Below, piece after piece: positions 11,626 to 54,200 of a stretch of DNA of 64,000 nt. The notes beneath the pieces are model-generated. The model saw nothing but the letters and a program-made list of their open reading frames with translations, was not told where the DNA came from and did no database searches. The stretch comes from Eledone cirrhosa (taxonomy: Eukaryota). The stretch spans positions 172,298,001-172,362,000 of the forward strand of contig OZ024741.1 of the NCBI GenBank assembly GCA_964016885.1, written 5' to 3'. How positions within the stretch are numbered: the first letter of the stretch is position 1; every line of letters starts with the position of its first letter. Made by a program: the position numbers and the translations under genes.

Positions 11626-11894
11626 AGTTAATATGCCCAAGGGTACTAAGTATCCCTGGAAATATATAGGTTGTCTATGATTCAAGGGTTTTCAATGGTA
11701 TTAATTTGACATACCAGAACTATAATATTAAGATAAGCAGAACAAACAAAATTCAACCAATTTATTAAAATAAATTAAAAAATATAATTTAAATATTTAC
11801 CTATCGGTAAGGGCGAAAAGGATAGGTAAATATTTAAATAATATTTTTTAATTTATTTTAAAAAATTGGCTGAATTTTGCTTGTTCTGCTTATC

Positions 11895-11900
<6 letters not shown>
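11620..11900. repeat. Fold-back element in (TA)n: about 85-bp arms plus one-sided tail
   Basis: ATATTAAGATAAGCAGAACAA..TTTACCTATC / GATAGGTAAA..TTGTTCTGCTTATCTTAATAT around loop GGTAAGGGCGAAAAG. Confidence 0.85.
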
Positions 11901-11940
<40 letters not shown>

Positions 11941-11942
<2 letters not shown>

Positions 11943-13262
11943 TAATTTAATATATCTATTAACATAAGCGCACAGATGTACGCTAATGCCAGCAAATACA
12001 CAGGTTATGTCATAGTACCTAGGTGGTTCAATGCAGGAGGATGCAGAACAATAATAAAAAAGACGTAAAATAAGAAAAATTAAAAAAAAAAATTTTAGAA
12101 AAGGAGTGAAAATTTTAGTAAGTAAGTTAATTTTTTTAAATTTTTTTTTTTAATTTTTCTTATTTTACGTCTTTTATATTATTGTTCTGCATCCTCCTGC
12201 ATTGAACCACCTAGGTGCTATGACATAACCTGTGTATTTGCTGGCATTAGCGTACATCTGTGCGCTTATGTTAGTAGATATATTAAATTATCTATATTTA
12301 TCTCCAAATCACTGATTTGTCGAGCAAACCTGCCAAAACCACTACTAAATTGTTGGTGTGTTAGTAGGCGTCTGTCTTCTTACCATCCCACACCCACCGA
12401 CTAGCCTCAGTGTCACGTGATTGATTCTTTAGAATCGGCCATTTGACCTGTGGCAGCGAGATTTTCCGTGCTTGGAATCCAGTCCCCGATAGCTGTTCCA
12501 TTTACCGAATTATTATTATTTTTATATGAGTCCCCAGTGTCCGCGAATTGCCTGGAGACTTGGCTGAGAATAGACTTCCCTGATGACGCAATGAAATTCT
12601 CAACAGTTCATTACGTAACTGTCTTTATCCCATTGCAGAAACTAATTAGTTGGAGTGAAAATTTTAGTAAGTAAGTTATTTTTTTTTTATTTTTTTTTTA
12701 AATTTTTCTTATTTTACGTCTTTTATACTATTGTTCTGCATCCTCCTGCATTGAACCACCTAGGTACTATGACATAACCTGTGTATTTGCTGGCATTAGC
12801 GTACATCTGTGCGCTTATGTTAGTAGATATATTAAATTACCTATATTTATCTCCAAATCACTGATTTGTCGAGCAAACCTGCCAAAACCACTACTAAATT
12901 TTTTGTGCGTTAGTAGGCGTCTGTCATTTTACCATCCCACTCCTACCGACTAGCCTCAGTGTCACGTGATTGATTCTTTAGAATCGGCCATTTGACCTGT
13001 GGCAGCGAGATTTCAGTGCTTGGAATCCAGTCCCCGATAGTGTTCCATTTACCGAATTATTATTATTTTTATATGGGTCCCCAGTGTCCGCGCATTGCCT
13101 GGAGACTTGGCTGAGAATAGACCTCCCTGATGACGCAATGAAATTCTCAACAGTTTATTACGTAACTGTCTTTATCCCATTGCAGAAACTAATTAGTTAG
13201 AGTGAAAATTTTAGTAAGTTAATTTTAAAAAGATTTTTTTTTTTAATTTTTCTTATTTTACG

Positions 13263-13270
<8 letters not shown>
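11941..13270 (+). mobile_element. Hammerhead-bearing tandem array (about 548-bp unit x2.1) with a 5' inverted arm; PLE pLTR/retrozyme-like
   Basis: Units start at 12103, 12652, 13199; 11941-12095 is the reverse complement of about 12135-12295; both ends abut (TA)n. Confidence 0.85.
12576..12655 (+). ncRNA. Type I hammerhead ribozyme motif (second copy 13123-13202)
   Basis: TTCC-CTGATGA-cGCAATG...CATTGCa-GAAAC-TAATTA-GTT^GGAG; palindromic stem III AACTAATTAGTT. Confidence 0.72.
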
Positions 13271-13334
<64 letters not shown>

Positions 13335-13530
13335 GTTATTCCGGGTTGAATCGGAGGTAACCACAGTAAGTAAGGTACTCAATACATACCAGAGTATAAC
13401 AGTTTTAATATAGATGAGATTCTACAGGACTAGAACTGTTTCATTCATTAGAAATCATCCGGAATCATGATTCCTGATGATTTCTAATGAATGAAACAGT
13501 TCTAGTCCTGTAGAATCTCATCTATATTAA

Positions 13531-13535
<5 letters not shown>
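13335..13535. mobile_element. Fold-back hammerhead element in (TA)n
   Basis: Near-perfect palindrome about 13401-13534 centred at 13467/13468; left tail TTCCGGGTTGAATCGG..AAGGTACTCAATACAT shared with 56421. Confidence 0.88.
13469..13517 (+). ncRNA. Type I hammerhead ribozyme motif
   Basis: GATTC-CTGATGA-tTTC TAAT GAAt-GAA-ACAG TTCTAGTC CTGT-A^GAATC. Confidence 0.82.
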
Positions 13536-13592
<57 letters not shown>

Positions 13593-13597
<5 letters not shown>

Positions 13598-13955
13598 AAT
13601 AAAATAACAAGGACGATTGTTTACTCCTTCATTACGTTTGTTGTTTGGTGACGCGCTTTTCGCCACTGATCAGCTCATGGTTCGATCCTTATCGATCTGA
13701 CCCGACTCTGTAACCCACGGCTCGTCAGACCCCTAGTAATCGGATCAGATCGATACAGATCGAACCTTGAGCTGATCAGTTGCGAAACGCGCGTCACAAA
13801 CCAATAAACCTAATGAAGGAGTAACCAATTGTCCTTGTTATTTTATTTCACTATAATACACCCTGTCTAGCTCTAGACCTCGACACCGAAGTGAACCTAA
13901 ACATCGAGTACTCACCCAGGTGAACCAACAGTAACTCCAAGTCATACTCCCTGGA
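13593..13955. repeat. Diverged fold-back element in (TA)n with hammerhead 3'-half-like motif
   Basis: Arms about 13593-13715 and 13738-13853; GAAAC-GCGC-GTC at 13784-13795; about 100-bp tail on the right. Confidence 0.75.
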
Positions 13956-13961
13956 TATATA

Positions 13962-15897
<1,936 letters not shown>

Positions 15898-16480
15898 ATA
15901 TATATATATATAATTGGTTATGCACGAGTGCATTAATGTTTTCCAGGACACAGTGTTATGTACCGTGTAGTGGAATGTCAGCTTACAACAGAGTGGTGCT
16001 CAACGCAATGCAGAAAAAAGGTGTATATTCCAGTTTAGCTATATTCCGGGGCGTGTATAAGGAATTAAAAAGAACAGAAAGATGCAGTAAAAGAGATTTA
16101 TTCGGTTCTTACGTACGTTTCAATAGACATCAATTCGCCTAGATCTCGCTACATCTATAATATTATATATTTAGTAGAGCATTCGATATCCAATGCACAA
16201 TCGATCCCATATCATCAGAGATTATGTCACTCTAGAAAATATACTTTATATATATAAACACTAGGTGGTAATAGTGGCGTAGGAAGAATACTTTTTCTAC
16301 ATCTGAGTATGTGTGTATGTGTTTCTATCGTGTATTTCTATCGTGTTAGTGGTCCAAGGTTCAGTGGGGGTGGAAGGACCGAAGGTATAAACAAGGAATA
16401 AGTGATTTGGGGTCCAGTTATAATTTGCGGTATGGGAGGAGAGAGATATAGGATTTGTCAAAGAAATTGTATGTCTACGC

Positions 16481-19400
16481 ATTGTATGTCTACGCCATTT
16501 TTATTCAGTCTTTCTATATATTTATTTATTTATTTGCTTGTTTGTTTATTTTATTTTATCTTCTTTGCGCATGCATTTTCGTGTGTGTGTAGTGTTTTGT
16601 TTGATGTGTGATGGGTGACTAGTGTGTGTTTATGTGCTTGGTGTTATTGTGCTTGTGTATGTATTTATTTATTTATTTATTTATTTATTTATCTACTTAT
16701 TTATACTTCTCTTAGGTCAGTGTTATTTGTTTGGGTGTTGTTGTTATTCCATTCATTCTTTCTGTTTAGTCTTGGTCTTCTAATTTCTATTTCACTGGCC
16801 TCTCTGATTTGCCTATCTGCTGGGTCATTTCTATGTTTAGATATTATTCTAATTTCTATGTTGTCTATGTTACCGTCATGTTGTTGTCTAGCATGTTCGT
16901 ATAGTACTGACCCGTTTTTTCGTCCTTTTAGTTCCCCCCAGTGTTGGTGTATCCTTTCACCTATGCTATGAGCTGTCTCACCTATGTATGCTGTTGTCAT
17001 GTTTCTGAAAGTACCCTCTGTACATCTTATTCTATAGATTACGTTTCTAGTTTTACAGTTTATCCGGGGGTTTACCTTACATATGATACATTTCCTATTG
17101 GTACAGTGGGTTTTCTTAAAAGGGTAGGTTTTGCTGATCAGGGATTTTATGGTGGTTCCTGGCTTTTCTACCACCTTCATTTTTAAGTGGGTCTTTCTCA
17201 GGGCCTTTCTACACTGGTTAGCTAATTTCCCTCCAGGGATAGCGTCCACAAACATGACACTCAGGTATCTCTGGTTGTCGTACCATGAGGTGGCTTTCCC
17301 TATCTTATGTCTAGCCCTATCTAAGCTATTCCATGATTTGCTCCTGTATAATGGGCAAATTCTTTTCATGTCCAGTTCCATGAGGGTCTTATACTTCTCC
17401 ATGGCTCCTTCGTATACTCTGACTCTGTCTCTTTGGTTGTAGCCAGAGAACTGCATGCGGTTGATGAAGTGTTGGGTGTGTCTTTCCATTTCTGTTGGGT
17501 CGCACATGCGGGACACATTCTTCATCACTCGTACCAAATCTGCGATCAGAATATTAAACTTAGCACTACTGGCCATTGCTGAGTTTTTGAGTATCAGGTA
17601 TTTGGAGGCCATGGGTTTAGCATAGTGTGAGTGGAGAATTTGGGCTCTCTCGTCTATAGTGTTAATCCAGAGTTCTGTGTCTAATACAGGTAGTCTGCTG
17701 TTAGGGTGTTTGGAAGGGAAGTCGATAGTTACAGTTATACTCTGGTGTATGGAATTAGCTATCTGCTGGATGCTTTCCATTGTGCTACGTTCTAAATCAA
17801 ACTTGTTAGTGCTCTCTAGTGGGGATGTTCTTATAACTATATTGATATCGTCTACATATCGAGAGTACATGATGAGGTCTATGGAGCTCTGATTAAGGAG
17901 ATCTTTAAGTCTCCTTTCCCACCATACCATGAAAAGGTTGGCAACATCACCAGCTATGCTGACACCAATGGCTGCTCCCTCATTTTGGGTGTAGATCTTC
18001 TCTTTGAACTTAAATATGTGGCCCTTTAGGGTAGTTTTGATACTAGCCCCTATTGCATGTGCGACCATTTTTCTTACCTGATCATTGTTTTGGGGGGTCC
18101 GTATAGCTTTGGTTCACCCAATCCACCTTCCCATGGGAGTCTTTTTTGCCATTGAGGTTATGGTGGCGGGTCTACCTCTTATGGGTCTACTAGGGCAGAA
18201 ACGTCTAAGGTCATGGCTGTCTAGGTAGTCAGTGTCGTAGGTAAGTCTAAGTAGGAGGCCCAGTTCGTCTGTGTCGACGTCACAGAACTCCACCTCACTC
18301 TCAATGATCATCTCCACACATCTTTTCACAGCAAAATCAATGTTAATGGATGGGTACAGTGACACCACATCCATGCTGCCTATTATGCAGTTGGATAGGT
18401 TCCTGTTTTTGTTGCACTCACTGATTCTGCTGAGGAGGTCCTCTGTACTGTCACATACATCTGGGGACATCTTGATTATGGGGCGTATAACCATTGAGAG
18501 GAAGTAGGAGATCCTGTAGTTACTAGCTATATTAGCTCCGCATACGGGTCTTGTTGGAGGTCCTGTTGTCGGGTCGTCGACTGTCTTGTGGTCTTTGCGG
18601 AGCCCATACAAAGGTGGTATGCCATTGTTAGACGCCTGGAAGTTGTTGGCAGTGCGTCTGCTTGGCTTTAGGATGTCAGTCCACATCCTCATGTGAGCGT
18701 TGAGGATTTTCTCTATCCCATCGTGTGTTTGTTGTGCAATTTCGCTCGTGTTGGTGATGTGGGGTTGCATAGCCCTGATGTAGTTCGGCATGCTATCTAT
18801 TGACATCCTACCAGACTTATCCGTGGGTAGACATACTACCTCACCATCCCTTGTGCGCTGCTTGAGGCTAACCAAGCCTTCTACAGGTTTCCTCCCAAGT
18901 TGTTGGGCCTCTGGTCTGCTCTGTCTCTTATTATACCTGTCTACTATTTGTCTAACCTTATTTCTAGCTATGGTAAACTCTGCCTCTGTCTCGTCATCTA
19001 TTTGTTGTGGTATGCACACTCTTTTATTAAAGGGTAACCTCATAGGATAGATATTACCCATCTTATATGTTTTGTCCGCTGGGTTGAAAAATAGTTTCTC
19101 TAAGGGGTTGTCATTATATCTATCGTCATAGTTGTGTGTGTTGCAATTATTGTTATCATGGTGGTTGTTGTTGTTCCTATCATTAGCATTATTATTATTG
19201 TTATGATTGCTAGATGTATTGTTGTTTACTTCACCGTTATTGTTGTTGTTACTGTTATTTCTACTATTGTGGTTGTTACTTTTATTATGTTTCTTGTTTT
19301 TGTTGTGTCTATCATTGATGTTGCTACATGTACTATTTCCATTATTACCACTGTGGTTATTGCTGTTGTTGTTCGTATTGTTACCGTTATTACTACTGTG

Positions 19401-20088
19401 GTCGCTGCTGCTGTGTCTGTGGTTAATGTTTCTATTATTATTATTATTATTGTGGTTGTTGTTGTTCTGTCTATCGTTAGTATTGTTACCATTATTACTG
19501 TTCTCACTTTCCTGCTATTGTTATTGTTATGGCTGTTATTTCTATTTCTCAGAGTTATTGTTTATATTACTACTACCGTTATTATTGTTGTTGTTGTTGT
19601 TGTTTACCTTTGCATTCCAACGTATTTTTGTGAAACACTTTTCCAGCTCCGTTTTGCACTCCATAGGGTGCACTCCATAGGTCTTTTTGTAGATGGCAAA
19701 TTTTGGTGGTAGCTGCAGGATTTGTTGTTCTTGTTCAATGATTAAAGTGTTCCCATAAATATTTACTGCAAATAAATAAATAAATATATAGACAGACTGA
19801 ATAAAAATGGCGTAGACATACAATGCAGCGGGAGGAAACGATAGCACCAGTGACGATGTTGCAGATGTGCAACGAAAGATTTATGATAAACTATATATAT
19901 GTGTTTATGTCTATATTGTATCTGTATTATTTTTGACCGTCGGTCAGTCAATGGCAACATTGAGGACCGAGTAAGTTAGATTACCGATATAAAAGACACA
20001 GAAGCGACAAGCGAAAACTAACCAAACAGTGAGTGTGTTCTGTTATTAATTCTGGCAATATTACACAAATATGACCCTCCCCAAGTAT

Positions 20089-20090
<2 letters not shown>
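16481..20090 (-). mobile_element. Penelope-like element (Naiad-like by motif recall) with inverted pLTR piece at its 5' end
   Basis: RT + GIY-YIG frame 16701-19760; 16481-16535 is inverted at about 19770-19823. Confidence 0.88.
16701..19760 (-). pseudogene. PLE polyprotein (RT + GIY-YIG endonuclease); one reading frame with in-frame stops
   Basis: LPPKF..ELEKCFTKIRW, TDKSG, LRKDHK, RPVCGA, SMDVVSLYPSI, QNEGAAIG, RYVDD, LPVLD, CTNRKCIIC, VIYRIRC..AYIGET; ORFs 19542-19847, 18114-19061 and 16701-18068 share a frame. Confidence 0.92.
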
Positions 20091-20143
<53 letters not shown>

Positions 20144-38193: not shown

Positions 38194-38239
38194 GGCCGTC
38201 CTGACGAAGGCCAGTCAAGCCTGAAATGCATAGACGGTT
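38194..38239 (+). ncRNA. Minimal type I hammerhead ribozyme motif
   Basis: ggCCGTC-CTGACGA-AGGC CAGTCAA GCCT-GAAAT-GC-ATA^GACGGtt; canonical core; palindromic ATGCAT. Confidence 0.85.
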
Positions 38240-44171: not shown

Positions 44172-44260
<89 letters not shown>

Positions 44261-44264
44261 TAAC

Positions 44265-44301
<37 letters not shown>

Positions 44302-44342
44302 AAAACTTAATAAACGGCATCAATAACCACATCCAATTCACA

Positions 44343-45299
44343 ATGGAATACAGCCAAGATCAACTCCCATTTCTGGACATCTTAATCTTAAAAAAAGACA
44401 CAAATATCGAAACTGACATACACTACAAACCAACAGATTCCAAACAATATCTGCTATTCACCTCCAACCATCCAAAGTACACGAAGACGAACATTCCTTT
44501 TAACCTAGCAAGAAGAATTTGCACAATTGTCTCCAATTATGAAACGCGAAATAAAAGACTTCAAGAATTAAAGGAAACTCTACTCGAGAGAGAGTACCCA
44601 CTATTACTAATAAATAATGGAATAGAAAGGGCTAAAGCAATAGGCATTGATGAATTACGGAAACAGAAACAAATTCAAGGTACGTCCAATATTCTATCAT
44701 ATATCTCAACACACAACCCAAGAAATGCGGAAGCTTACAACACTATTCACAATAACATCCCACTACTAAAACAAAACCCAAGAATGAAAAAAGCCCTTGA
44801 AACACAAAAAATAATCAAAAGCAAAAGACAACCAAAATCACTGAAAACATTACTCACCAATGCCAAATTACCTACCACAAACCCACAACCAAGTATCAAA
44901 AAATGTGGTCGCTCTAATTGTGGAACCTGCACTCACCTCATTGAAAGCAACACGTATACATTTAAATCAGGACAAAATTTTACTGTAAAAAATCACTTCA
45001 CTTGCTCATCAAAAAATCTGCTTTATGCCATTAAATGTAAAGGATGCAATGAAGATTATATAGGACAAACTAAACTCACACTCAGAAACAGAATGACAGT
45101 TCATTGCCAACAATTACGAGATCCAACCACGAGACAGATACCACTAAGTGCACATCTAGACATTTGCGCAAATAATAAAACACCCAAATTCCAAGTCTTC
45201 CCATTTTACCTTTGCGCTAACAATACAACAGAACAAATGCGAATAAATAAGGAAAATATGTTTATTCAAAAATATAGACCAACATTAAATATGGTTTAA
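44343..45299 (+). pseudogene. PLE RT thumb + zinc finger + GIY-YIG endonuclease (N-terminally truncated, frame open)
   Basis: HIQFTME..LPFLD..TDIHYKPTD..SNHP; CGRSNCGTC; LLYAIKC..YIGQT..LRNRMTVH. Confidence 0.9.
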
Positions 45300-48187: not shown

Positions 48188-49584
48188 ATACGTCCGTATG
48201 AAGCTAAGAAGAAATGTTTGTGTATATGTGAGTAAAAGAGTGTGTGTACATGTAAGTACGAAGCTATGAGCAACGAGAAAGCGATACGAATCTAGGGGTG
48301 TGATAAAGGACGAGGTATTAGAGAAATTGGGGAGGTGAGATGAGTCCAAGCGGGGAATATGACCCAAGACAGTGAATCAGACTTGGTTCAATCCTGGTGC
48401 GAGAGGCCTGTGATCCATGATGTAAAAGGACACCCAGGACTGAAACATGTAGGGAAGAATGACCAGGAGAACAGAAATGACGGGCGACAGGAGTATCCAA
48501 TCCGAGTCGTATGTCCCTCAAATGTTCGGCAAAACGGTCCGCCATACGGCGTCCCGTTTGTCCGATATATAAAGACCCGCAAAGGGAACACCGGAGGGCA
48601 TAGACAACGTGGGTGGATGTGCAGGTGAAGGAATGGCAGATACGGAAAGACCCGTCAGGGCCTGTAAGAGTGGTGAGGGTGGAAATAAAGGGACAAGTAT
48701 TGCAGCGGGAACGGGAAGAAGGATGAGAGCCGGGTGGAGTCGTGGGACAGGACGAAACAGAACTGCGAACCAGGAGGTCGCAGAGGTTTCTGACGCGCTT
48801 AAAAGCAGTAATGGGTGGTTTTGGAAAAAAGCGAGAATTGACGGGGTCAGAAGACAGGATACGGAAGGAACGGAGGATATGTTGCCGGAGTGGTAGGGTG
48901 CTGGAGTGGTAGGTGAGGGAAAGGAACACGGGTGTTGGGAGGGCGGGCGTGAGGTGAGAGGGCTGTGGTGCGGTCTATTTCACGGGCGCTGGTGAGAGCA
49001 GCTTAGATCAGGGAGAGGGGACATCCACGCTGGATGAAGCAGGAAGCCATGCGAAAGGATTGGCTTTCGAAATCGTCGTCCTGGCTACAGAGACGACGAA
49101 GACGGAGGAATTGGGAATAGGCTATGGAGTGTTTGGTGTGGGTTGGATGGGAGGAGGTGAAGTCGAGATAAGACTGGGAGTCTGTTGGTTTAATGTAGAT
49201 GGAAGTAGAGAGGGTGTAGTGAGAGTGATTAATAGATAGAGAGATATCTAGAAAAACGACAAAAGAATCGGAGACGGAGAGGGTGAAATAGAGAGCAGGA
49301 AGGAAAGATTGGACAAAAGAAAGAAAACAGTCGAGCTGTTTTCGTGATAGAGAGGTATGTATGTATGATGTATATATGTTCATATACACATACATACGTA
49401 CGTATATATATATATATATATATATATAAATATATATATATATGTACGTATGTATGTGTATATGAACATATATACATCCCCTTGTTCATAAAGATAAACA
49501 CTAGACTCTGTAAAACAGAGCTATGAATTTCGATGTTAAATACCCGTCTTACTCATACACGTGCGGGGTTCATTATTAAATTGA

Positions 49585-51272: not shown

Positions 51273-54200
51273 GCTCTAGTATTAATGTAAGGGAGATATA
51301 TGTGGTTAGGAGAGAAACCAGCCGTTATATATAGAGAAAAAAATGAAAAGTAACCAGACATAGGCGAGGCAGAATTTAAAAACCCTATGTTTCAATGTAG
51401 AAATATTAGTTCGTATAAAAACAGGCACTATAATGTAAATATCAGTATTCATGAATGAGACACGTATCTATAATGTGTGAAAAGTAATGATCTTATGTTT
51501 AGTTTTAAAAATTCATATGTTTATATCATAACTACAAACATCGATGTGAATTTACGTGATCAGCACTGCAAACTCCTATTTCACACGGAGAACATTCTCA
51601 TTGTGCTATAATATTTAAGTATACATATATGTGTATATATACACATATATATAGAGTCTATATTAATTTTAACAATACTATTCTTGTCTTTACTCTACAT
51701 GATTATCTATCAAGCAGAAATAGAGAACAGATTTCAATATATTAATAAAAATATCAGAAACAAAAACAAAAAATAATAATAAATAAATAAAACAGAAAAC
51801 TAAAAAATATTAAATATTAAAAATAAAAATATTAAAAATATTAAAAAATATTAAAATAATAAAAATAAAAACATAGTATGCCACGCAAATCGACCACAAA
51901 GATCAACCCTTCAAAGTTAATTGAAAATATATTGCCAAGTTCATTATAAGCATCAGTGTCGAAAACAGATAAAACCAAAAATTATTTACCAAATCCTGTC
52001 TAGCAGAAATCATTTCAAAAGTTTAGGATACCCATTTGGTCTACATATGTTCTTATATTTAATATAGAAGTTTATCTAGTGTAACATTTATTCGATATAT
52101 TTGGAGCATCAACTTTTAGGGTAGTTTAATTTTTCATGAAGAATGTTTAAAATAAAAATAAAAAGAAGAATAAAAAGAAGAAATCGAAAGATTTATCGGC
52201 TAGTTTCATAAATAATTACAAATCAAACTAAATATACTACATTTTAAATTTAAATTTATATTTAAAAGTTGAGTTCAATCTATGTTTGCAGCAACTGAAT
52301 AAATTTGTCCGTAGATTAAGGGAATTTTTAGATTTTAGTATAAAGAATATCTCCTCCGCGCAGAGGTCACATGTCTCAGAGGATGAATTAAAAGGAATCC
52401 CTCTTGAGACTATATTCCAAGCCGTCGAATATCTAACGTTATCATGCCTAAGTTGCCAGAGTACGCCTGATAGTGCTGTTGAAGATTTTTTGCTTGGATC
52501 TGTGAAAGAATTCTTGTGGTTATTATAGCGAAGTTTAAATTCCGTCGATGTGGAACCAACGTAGTTAAAAGAATTAAAGTCCGTTTTAACATTACAGTTG
52601 TATATTATATTTTTAACTAAGCAGTTGTTATTTAACGGACATTTAGATCTATCTCTACAGTTACATTTGTTAACTTGTATATTATTTATGCTATTATCGC
52701 TAGGTTTTAAGTTCCTATTATTTATTCTATTAATATTTTGTGCTAAATTTTTGGTGGATGAGTAGGTTAATTTTATAGTATGTCTATTGAAAATTGAGTG
52801 ATACCTATGTGTTCTAGGGAAGCGATTATCAAGAGCTTTAAAAAATAGTTTAGCGATGTGGGTGTTAATGTTTAGTGAGAAAGGGGGGGCAAACCATATT
52901 ATGTTCCTAGTTCTATTTCTTTTTTGGCTTTTGGAATTATTGTAATGCTTTCTATTATAGTTGTTAAGGTTGTGGCCGTAATTAAAATAGTTGTTATTTT
53001 GTTTAGTTTGTCTATCATTATCTATGTACATAATTTTATCACTATATCCTGCTCTAGCTAACGCTTCATTGTAGTACTGGGCTTTTTCGTCGAAAATCTT
53101 TCTATTAGACGAGATTCTAGAGATACGTTTTTGAACAGAGTTTACTATAGTAATTTTAACAGATCTGGGGTGGTTAGAGTTAAAGCTGACATAGTTTAAG
53201 TTTTCATTCAACTTGTGAAATGGATAGTGAAGACATGTGTTGAGATTTAATGTTATATCTAGTAAATTGACTATTCTATGGTTATTCTCAATTTCTATTT
53301 TTAGATTAAAGTAATTAAAAAATTGTGTAATTTGTTTTCTTTTTCTATTTAGTTCAGAGTTATTATTATCAATAAGTAAAAGCATGTCATCTCTATATAA
53401 ACCTCCGGTAGTACCAGGTATTTTCCTATGCAGCGAATTGATTAAAAATAAGCCCACAAGGTCAGTTACCTGAGCTGAGTAAATTCACATCGATGTTTGT
53501 AGTTATGATATAAACATATGAATTTTTAAAACTAGACATAAGATCATTACTTTTCACACATTATAGATACGTGTCTCATTCATGAATACTGATATTTGCA
53601 TTATAGTGCCTGTTTTTATACGAACTAATATTTCTACATTGAAACATAGGGTTTTTAAATTCTGCCTCGCCTATGTCTGGTTACTTTTCATTTTTTTCTC
53701 TATATATAACGGCTGGTTTCTCTCCTAACCACATATATCTCCCTTACATTAATACTAGAGCTAAATAAATAAATAAATAAATGTATCATTGATACGTCAT
53801 TCAACGGATGTTCAACTACCTACTTTTCTCTATATATATCTATCTCTATCTATTTCCTCTCTCTATATATCTCTCTCTGTTTCTTTACATGAAGTTCTTC
53901 TCTTTATCTATCTTTCCATCTCTCTATTTAGTTGCATGCATTTCTTTTCTTCGTTTTCTTTCTTTCTTTCCGTCTTTCTTTCTTTCTTTCTGTTTACAAT
54001 TTTCACTGCCAAATCAACTTTTCAAATGCAAGTCGATGTTGAAAGGTATGTCAAATCTATTTATTTATAAAACTGTCTATATTGTATTTTGTCTGAAGAA
54101 GGCATAACATATTGTTAATATGATATCCCTGAAATATATATAATGAAATAAATATGGTTTTATAAATATAGTTTCCATTTATTTAATATCGTAAATATAC

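Follow-up and report, generated by a model that had tools for sequence, protein, structure and literature searches.

The closest described systems to the element reported here are the animal non-LTR retrozymes. In two reports their units measure 170-400 nt (Cervera and de la Pena 2020, PMC7229834) and 51-972 bp (Li, Clavereau and Pollet, bioRxiv 10.64898/2026.07.22.740005). Like these retrozymes, the 548-base family described here from the genome of Eledone cirrhosa consists of non-coding tandem units of low GC content (38%), each with a type I hammerhead, and is dispersed in thousands of copies for which Penelope-like mobilisation is proposed. It differs in its 548-nt unit and in a minimal Penelope-type hammerhead that takes the place of the canonical motif. 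Insertion ends, inverted arms and 5' ends at the cut are not mapped in the accessible text of either report.

Minimal hammerheads, which cleave weakly in vitro, were described from Penelope-like elements, where paired motifs on opposite strands, spaced 100-700 bp, were also noted (Cervera and de la Pena 2014, PMC4209133). Ours share with these motifs a palindromic helix III, a long helix II, a helix I of 4-5 bp, the G10.1-C11.1 pair and one extra base that follows A9 and precedes G10.1; the 548-base family differs in a second inserted base, an A that separates helix II from GAAA, in a 37-nt loop II region and in the lack of a frame between the repeats. Partial tandems, an adjacent inverted 5'-truncated copy, microsatellite targets with a bias to TA and a tail often present at one end only are shared with Penelope-like insertions (Craig et al. 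2021, PMC8557442). A further likeness is to the element of the anole, which is primed internally at two sites downstream of its ribozyme, with the tail between them, and in which both target strands were extended in vitro (Frangieh et al. 2024, PMC11167929). Compared with both, our family has a longer tail (122 nt instead of 30-40), follows the one-sided rule strictly (55/55) and is non-coding. What hammerheads do in Penelope-like elements is described as unclear (PMC8557442), and in the one biochemically studied element, that of the anole, no RNA reads begin at the cut (PMC11167929), whereas ends at the cut are seen in the DNA of the 548-base family. Genomic 5' junctions that record the cut, with untemplated bases, are known from R2 with its HDV-like ribozyme (Eickbush et al. 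2013, PMC3774820) and resemble those described below. In R2, however, the cut sets the full-length 5' end, while in our family it is found in only ~2-3% of arms, and both the ribozyme and the enzyme class differ.

The class of element is therefore already known, and the recording of a ribozyme cut by genomic 5' ends is already established for R2. What the 548-base family adds is a set of countable footprints that bear on the role of the ribozyme and on the mobilisation of retrozymes: the ends of a non-coding retrozyme are of Penelope type, its two putative priming sites are used strictly one of each, and its 5' ends are in slight excess at the cut. That Penelope-like enzymes move retrozymes has so far been argued from co-occurrence and phylogeny. 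A search covering mainly the literature outside subscription journals found no mapping of retrozyme insertion ends or of hammerhead-defined 5' ends.

The insert lies in a window of 64,000 nucleotides, by which we mean the whole stretch of DNA that was analysed, between a left (TA)n target microsatellite (11898-11939) and a right one (13268-13333). On the plus strand, an array starts with unit 1 (12103-12651, 549 bp), whose first base is +1 after the predicted cut, and continues with unit 2 (12652-13198, 547 bp), which BLAST aligns to unit 1 at 96% identity, and with a partial third unit of ~75 bp (13199-13272) that ends at the family's fixed +77 end. The array is preceded by a minus-strand arm (11932-12102) corresponding to unit +199 to +29 and 96% complementary to it; on the outside it stops at +199, a fixed end of the family, and its outer ~8 bp are indistinguishable from the TA repeat. 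The base before 12103 is A, in contrast to T in the ribozyme, and by inspection the junction with the inverted arm at 12102/12103 has no microhomology across +1. The unit has a longest ATG frame of 46 aa and a longest stop-free frame of 92 aa. The original prediction of a forward array that begins at 12103, right after a predicted GUU cut, and is headed by an inverted arm is thus borne out by the sequence and by BLAST, and its view of the unit as lacking coding capacity agrees with ATG frames of at most 46 aa. Its further claim, that each unit ends in a hammerhead, holds for two complete predicted ribozymes, the second of which carries a G to A change at 13199.

The predicted hammerhead 1, of minimal type I, spans 12576-12655 on the plus strand. 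Helix I pairs 12576-12579 with 12652-12655, and the core, recognised by a descriptor match, starts at 12580. An extra C at 12587 is followed by helix II, pairing 12588-12593 with 12631-12636, then by an extra A at 12637, GAAA at 12638-12641 and the palindromic helix III, and the cut is predicted at 12651/12652 after GUU. Hammerhead 2 (13123-13202, plus strand; predicted cut 13198/13199) has its core from 13127, likewise found by descriptor; the strict form of the descriptor matches hammerhead 1 only, because the G to A change at 13199, the first base after the second cut, disrupts the closing pair of helix I. The descriptor matched the real unit and none of 20,000 mononucleotide shuffles of one unit. 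An Rfam search gave no hammerhead match at the gathering score, nor at E values up to 10; the sub-threshold matches were only long-hairpin miRNA models, far below their cut-offs, which appear because of the inverted repeat. The minimum-energy fold of the single motif differs from the active fold (z -0.86 and -1.21), and the circular fold gave z scores of -3.5 to -6.3, which, with 20 shuffles each, are no more than suggestive. Judged from its sequence, the motif fits the Penelope-type minimal hammerhead, and its architecture seems minimal rather than canonical.

Across the family, the hammerhead core columns are conserved at 94-100% (180 segments). In helix II, and in counts that ignore relatedness, pair 487:533 is formed in 189/191 segments and shows four Watson-Crick types, and 490:530 is formed in 181/190 and shows two; 486:534 is G-C in 187/192 segments, and the extra A stands opposite the extra C in 180/191. 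An unguided covariation scan was dominated by subfamily structure and was set aside. Helix I has 5 bp in most subfamilies. The cut triplet is GUU at 117/124 sites of a first, position-based sample and at 67/67 sites of the best BLAST loci. The predicted cut at a less common triplet therefore stands as far as GUU itself is concerned, and it is a family-wide conserved feature, no peculiarity of the 12103 copy. GUU is a less common hammerhead triplet in nature; a literature search on natural GUU hammerheads returned nothing relevant. In addition, a conserved hairpin is predicted at unit +130 to +179 (12232-12281, plus strand), between the two fixed ends, where pairs 149:162 and 150:161 vary on both sides with pairing kept; the hairpin is a candidate protein-binding element.

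In the 3.0-Gb genome, the +1 to +21 motif (21-mer) has 2,198 exact matches and the +56 to +77 motif 3,295. The first 100 listed places of each motif search, all on contig C1, were merged into 115 loci, one duplicate locus being left out. We parsed 234 arms, of which 194 end at +77 or +199; after removal of 40 arms ending elsewhere and of 13 that were short or at an edge, 181 were kept. Their outer ends lie at +77 in 89 and at about +199 in 92, leaving a tail of 122 nt (+77 to +199), and 160/181 reach TA within 8 nt. All 55 head-to-head pairs combine one +77 end with one +199 end (p 3e-17 vs independence). This two-site pattern of outer ends is the strongest signal in the data, and it goes beyond the original prediction. 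The arms of most pairs abut or share a few bases, and arm lengths within pairs are uncorrelated (rho 0.16, p 0.25). Arrays reach up to three full head-to-tail units among the 115 merged loci. Divergence within an element is lower than the best between-element value in 27/67 inverted and 22/86 tandem comparisons.

These features place the family. Tandem type I hammerheads, a short non-coding unit of low GC and dispersed monomers to multimers are those of a non-LTR retrozyme, and no RT plus GIY-YIG frame lies between repeats, either in the unit or joined to the sampled arms. On every testable feature the 548-base family is a non-LTR retrozyme, not an autonomous Penelope-like element. Meanwhile, its insertions carry the Penelope-like signature of an adjacent inverted 5'-truncated copy, a microsatellite target and a one-sided tail, departing from it in tail length (122 nt against 30-40 bp). 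The inverted arm is the ordinary Penelope-type layout and is not specific to a cleaved template.

The inner (5') ends of the 181 arms are scattered over the whole unit at ~0.002 per base, and 158/181 arms run through the cut. Three start exactly at +1 (1.7%, CI 0.3-4.8%), two of them with 6 nt of microhomology with the partner arm. The hazard at +1 is 0.0136 vs 0.002 overall (p 0.01), while +1, -1 and -2 combined are non-significant in this sample (3 vs 1.3 expected, p 0.14). All 92 read-through unit junctions are free of indels. For a genome-wide scan of starts we used a pattern with three mismatches at -14 to -12, which gave 56 matches, the first 30 checked by script and the remaining 26 tallied by hand; 47 were left once 5 duplicates and 4 copies with mutations or internal deletions had been excluded. 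Nineteen of these start at +1, -1 or -2 (4, 9 and 6, respectively), the others at the nine positions -3 to -11 (14), at +2 to +4 (8) and at +5 (6). Compared with 4.7 expected, the 19 starts at the cut are a significant excess (p 7e-5, or 1e-4 with +2 to +4 added to the background; an alternative count gave 18 vs 14, p 2e-4) that, at a capture rate of 45/181, amounts to ~57 ends, or 2.6% of sites. Most of it lies at apparent -1/-2, which requires an untemplated A or a chance T; this weight would fit an untemplated A added at run-off, like that in R2. Twelve cut-site starts lie in inspected loci; of these, one shows microhomology of 3 nt reaching into the cut, six show none, and the other five are untraceable. 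Two mismatches before +1 were found at 17/2,198 sites, a count that has no matched control and does not serve as a test.

In a second genome-wide pattern scan, both arms were found to start at +1 at 11 loci whose flanks differ. Ten have 0-3 nt between the arms, and in one the second arm turns into another family after +21. Control anchors gave 3 loci, two of them on a natural palindrome, and 0, so that the excess reaches p 0.001-0.003 after weighting by anchor frequency. In contrast, arms joined directly to TA show no +1 excess, with 5 loci vs 15 at the control anchor (p 0.48, anchor frequencies 103:189). The same test on the 431-bp family described below gave 0 vs 1 and is uninformative, the anchor variant being absent (0) from the sample. 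Mapping the 5' ends of the other copies, as the original prediction had proposed, therefore gave a divided answer: the ends are scattered, with 3/181 at the cut, and genome-wide they are in excess there. Since starts at the cut exceed the background genome-wide, the odds that the exact +1 start of the 12103 copy is not a chance truncation are 75-85%. Likely, then, a small non-random share of copies starting at the cut records cleavage in the living animal, and the idea of a genomic fossil of in vivo cleavage survives in this reduced form, given only 3/181 arms at the cut and none extra among those joined to TA. The value is carried by the statistics of the family, and the 12103 copy alone is weak evidence.

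Apart from the cut, starts are ~1.6-1.9 times the mean at unit positions 461-530, the ribozyme's own 5' half (44 events), possibly because transcription starts there, through microhomology in helix I or through a stall in helix II. Short duplications bounded exactly at +1 were noted at G000:C7:36329982 and 36331299, and at loci L144 and L077.

We assign a probability of about 0.7 to the following reading: the family is a non-coding, non-autonomous retrozyme with a predicted hammerhead, which a Penelope-like reverse transcriptase-endonuclease inserts at (TA)n through double priming, with ~2-3% of templates cut. The enzyme would nick both strands of the TA repeat, and two cDNAs would be primed inside the RNA, one at +77 and the other at +199. 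Both would extend upstream, stopping at ~0.2% per base, and would be joined end to end, mostly via short microhomology. Most templates would be continuous across the cut, as circles or uncut multimers, and ~2-3% would be linear RNAs with a ribozyme-made 5' end. As 158/181 arms cross the cut and 92/92 unit junctions lack indels, the usual template is likely circular or uncleaved; conversely, with 3/181 arms at +1 and the rest spread, cleaved RNA is not the usual template. With internal priming, an arm can exceed 199 nt only if its template continues past the cut, and, since a circle has no end at +1, an arm that starts there points to a linear, partly cleaved multimer. The 12103 copy probably derives from such a molecule, cut once and with two ribozymes left uncut. 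Reverse transcription as the origin of the insert, which the original prediction had put forward, is supported, and of its self-cleaved multimeric or circular template the linear, partly cleaved multimer is retained for the 12103 copy, the circle dropping out for want of an end at +1.

More tentatively, at slightly below even odds, double priming may be obligately asymmetric, with two enzyme subunits at +77 and +199 each working on its own RNA and the cDNAs joined end to end; the GUU hammerhead would cut in vivo, and the genome would record ~97% continuous vs ~3% cut templates. Separate RNAs are favoured, for one insertion at least, by a locus where arms of the 548-bp and 431-bp families meet with no TA in between. 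If true, asymmetric double priming and in vivo GUU cutting would provide direct fossil evidence on ribozyme function and retrozyme movement. Classical LINE-1 twin priming was rejected, because the inner ends do not lie at the second priming site.

Several other explanations have to be weighed, and one of them leaves the family as described and takes the +1 start of the 12103 copy as a chance truncation. With 5' ends all over the unit at ~0.002 per base, several exact +1 starts are expected among ~2,000 arms, and the arms joined to TA are without an excess at +1; however, the hazard at +1 is ~7 times the sample mean, the three positions at the cut stand ~4 times above background genome-wide, which leaves 15-25% for chance, and the 12103 junction has no microhomology across +1. 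We consider this explanation unlikely. A real excess at +1 might instead reflect where transcription starts, or where the polymerase stalls at the folded ribozyme, in keeping with a broader excess at +1 to +15 (17 events vs 8 just upstream, p 0.02) and with the anole ribozyme, which was dispensable for in vitro insertion (PMC11167929). Yet an 8-nt palindrome underlies the broad excess at +7 to +14, +1 matches, to the exact base, the cut that the core predicts, and a stall at helix I would be expected at +5/+6 rather than at +1. Moreover, 9/11 of the +1/+1 loci have blunt junctions with 0-2 extra A/T and no extra G, which a copied cap might give. A start or stall is thus decidedly unlikely as the source of the excess.

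The nature of the copies themselves can also be read differently. They could be the 5'-truncated ends (pseudo-LTRs) of an autonomous Penelope-like element, given that the ribozyme is of the minimal type known from pseudo-LTRs (PMC4209133) and that the insertion layout is that of truncated Penelope-like copies. This is made very unlikely by head-to-tail units without a reading frame, up to three full ones in a row, and by the sequence upstream of 51 single arms, which on inspection is mostly TA, other flank or more unit. No match to a Penelope-type protein runs into an arm at the few hundred sites covered of some thousands, tblastn of five window frames found no autonomous partner sharing the unit sequence, and the downstream regions of 13 nearby Penelope-type elements, containing their 3' ends, show no real or significant similarity to the unit, z values above 4 in this comparison being due to TA repeats. 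If, on the other hand, self-cleaved linear RNA were the normal template and arrays arose by jumps between cleaved monomers, the excess of ends at +1 would follow, and non-LTR reverse transcriptases do add bases on template run-off (PMC3774820); but 178/181 arms start elsewhere than at +1 and 92/92 unit-to-unit junctions are without an added or lost base, so that this idea is hardly credible. The least credible of all is a DNA-level satellite formed by local tandem duplication and fold-back repair without an RNA step. Divergence within and between elements is indistinguishable in the comparisons made, and a local-amplification model has been discussed (bioRxiv 10.64898/2026.07.22.740005). The short arrays are nevertheless dispersed with differing flanks, the two fixed outer ends stand in strict opposition while the inner ends are scattered, and the RNA structure is conserved with compensatory changes.

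A second hammerhead family, with a 431-bp unit, is present in the window at 14385-15899 and has a like layout, an inverted arm and 2.5 forward units lying in TA. Its core is at 15590, its cut is predicted after GUA at 15620/15621, and its outer ends lie near +217 and +276; the copy does not start at its own cut. Both families meet at locus L162 (G000:C7:82350083-82353109), where, within positions 1324-2526, an arm of the 548-bp family from +1 is linked by a +1 to +21 piece to about two 431-bp units, with no intervening TA.

Frames in the window and at the loci look, by their motifs, like Penelope-type RT and GIY-YIG proteins; in Pfam, 0/5 Penelope-like frames were matched. On the minus strand, 15910-20110 holds a Penelope-type element, by its motifs presumably Neptune-like, whose two long frames are separated by a single stop and which has an inverted terminal arm on its upstream side. 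Its 3' end is unlike those of its close relatives L082 and L030 and contains another hammerhead-like core with a long helix II. In one Penelope-like family the copies run into TA at either of two sites (3 and 4 copies) separated by ~60 nt, and the tail is ~60 nt in two other families of the Eledone cirrhosa genome. The frames at 44172-45299 (plus strand) and 52237-53484 (minus strand), neither with a Pfam match, are presumably, again by their motifs, 3' fragments of other Penelope-type frames. In addition, near-perfect short palindromic inserts lie between TA repeats at 11640-11897, 13401-13534, 13590-13855 and 14042-14263, and are probably two-armed truncated insertions of other families. Further minimal hammerhead motifs occur at 38201 (plus strand) and 47795 (minus strand), the latter also with GUU and ~0.5 kb past a GIY-YIG-like frame at 48318-48974.
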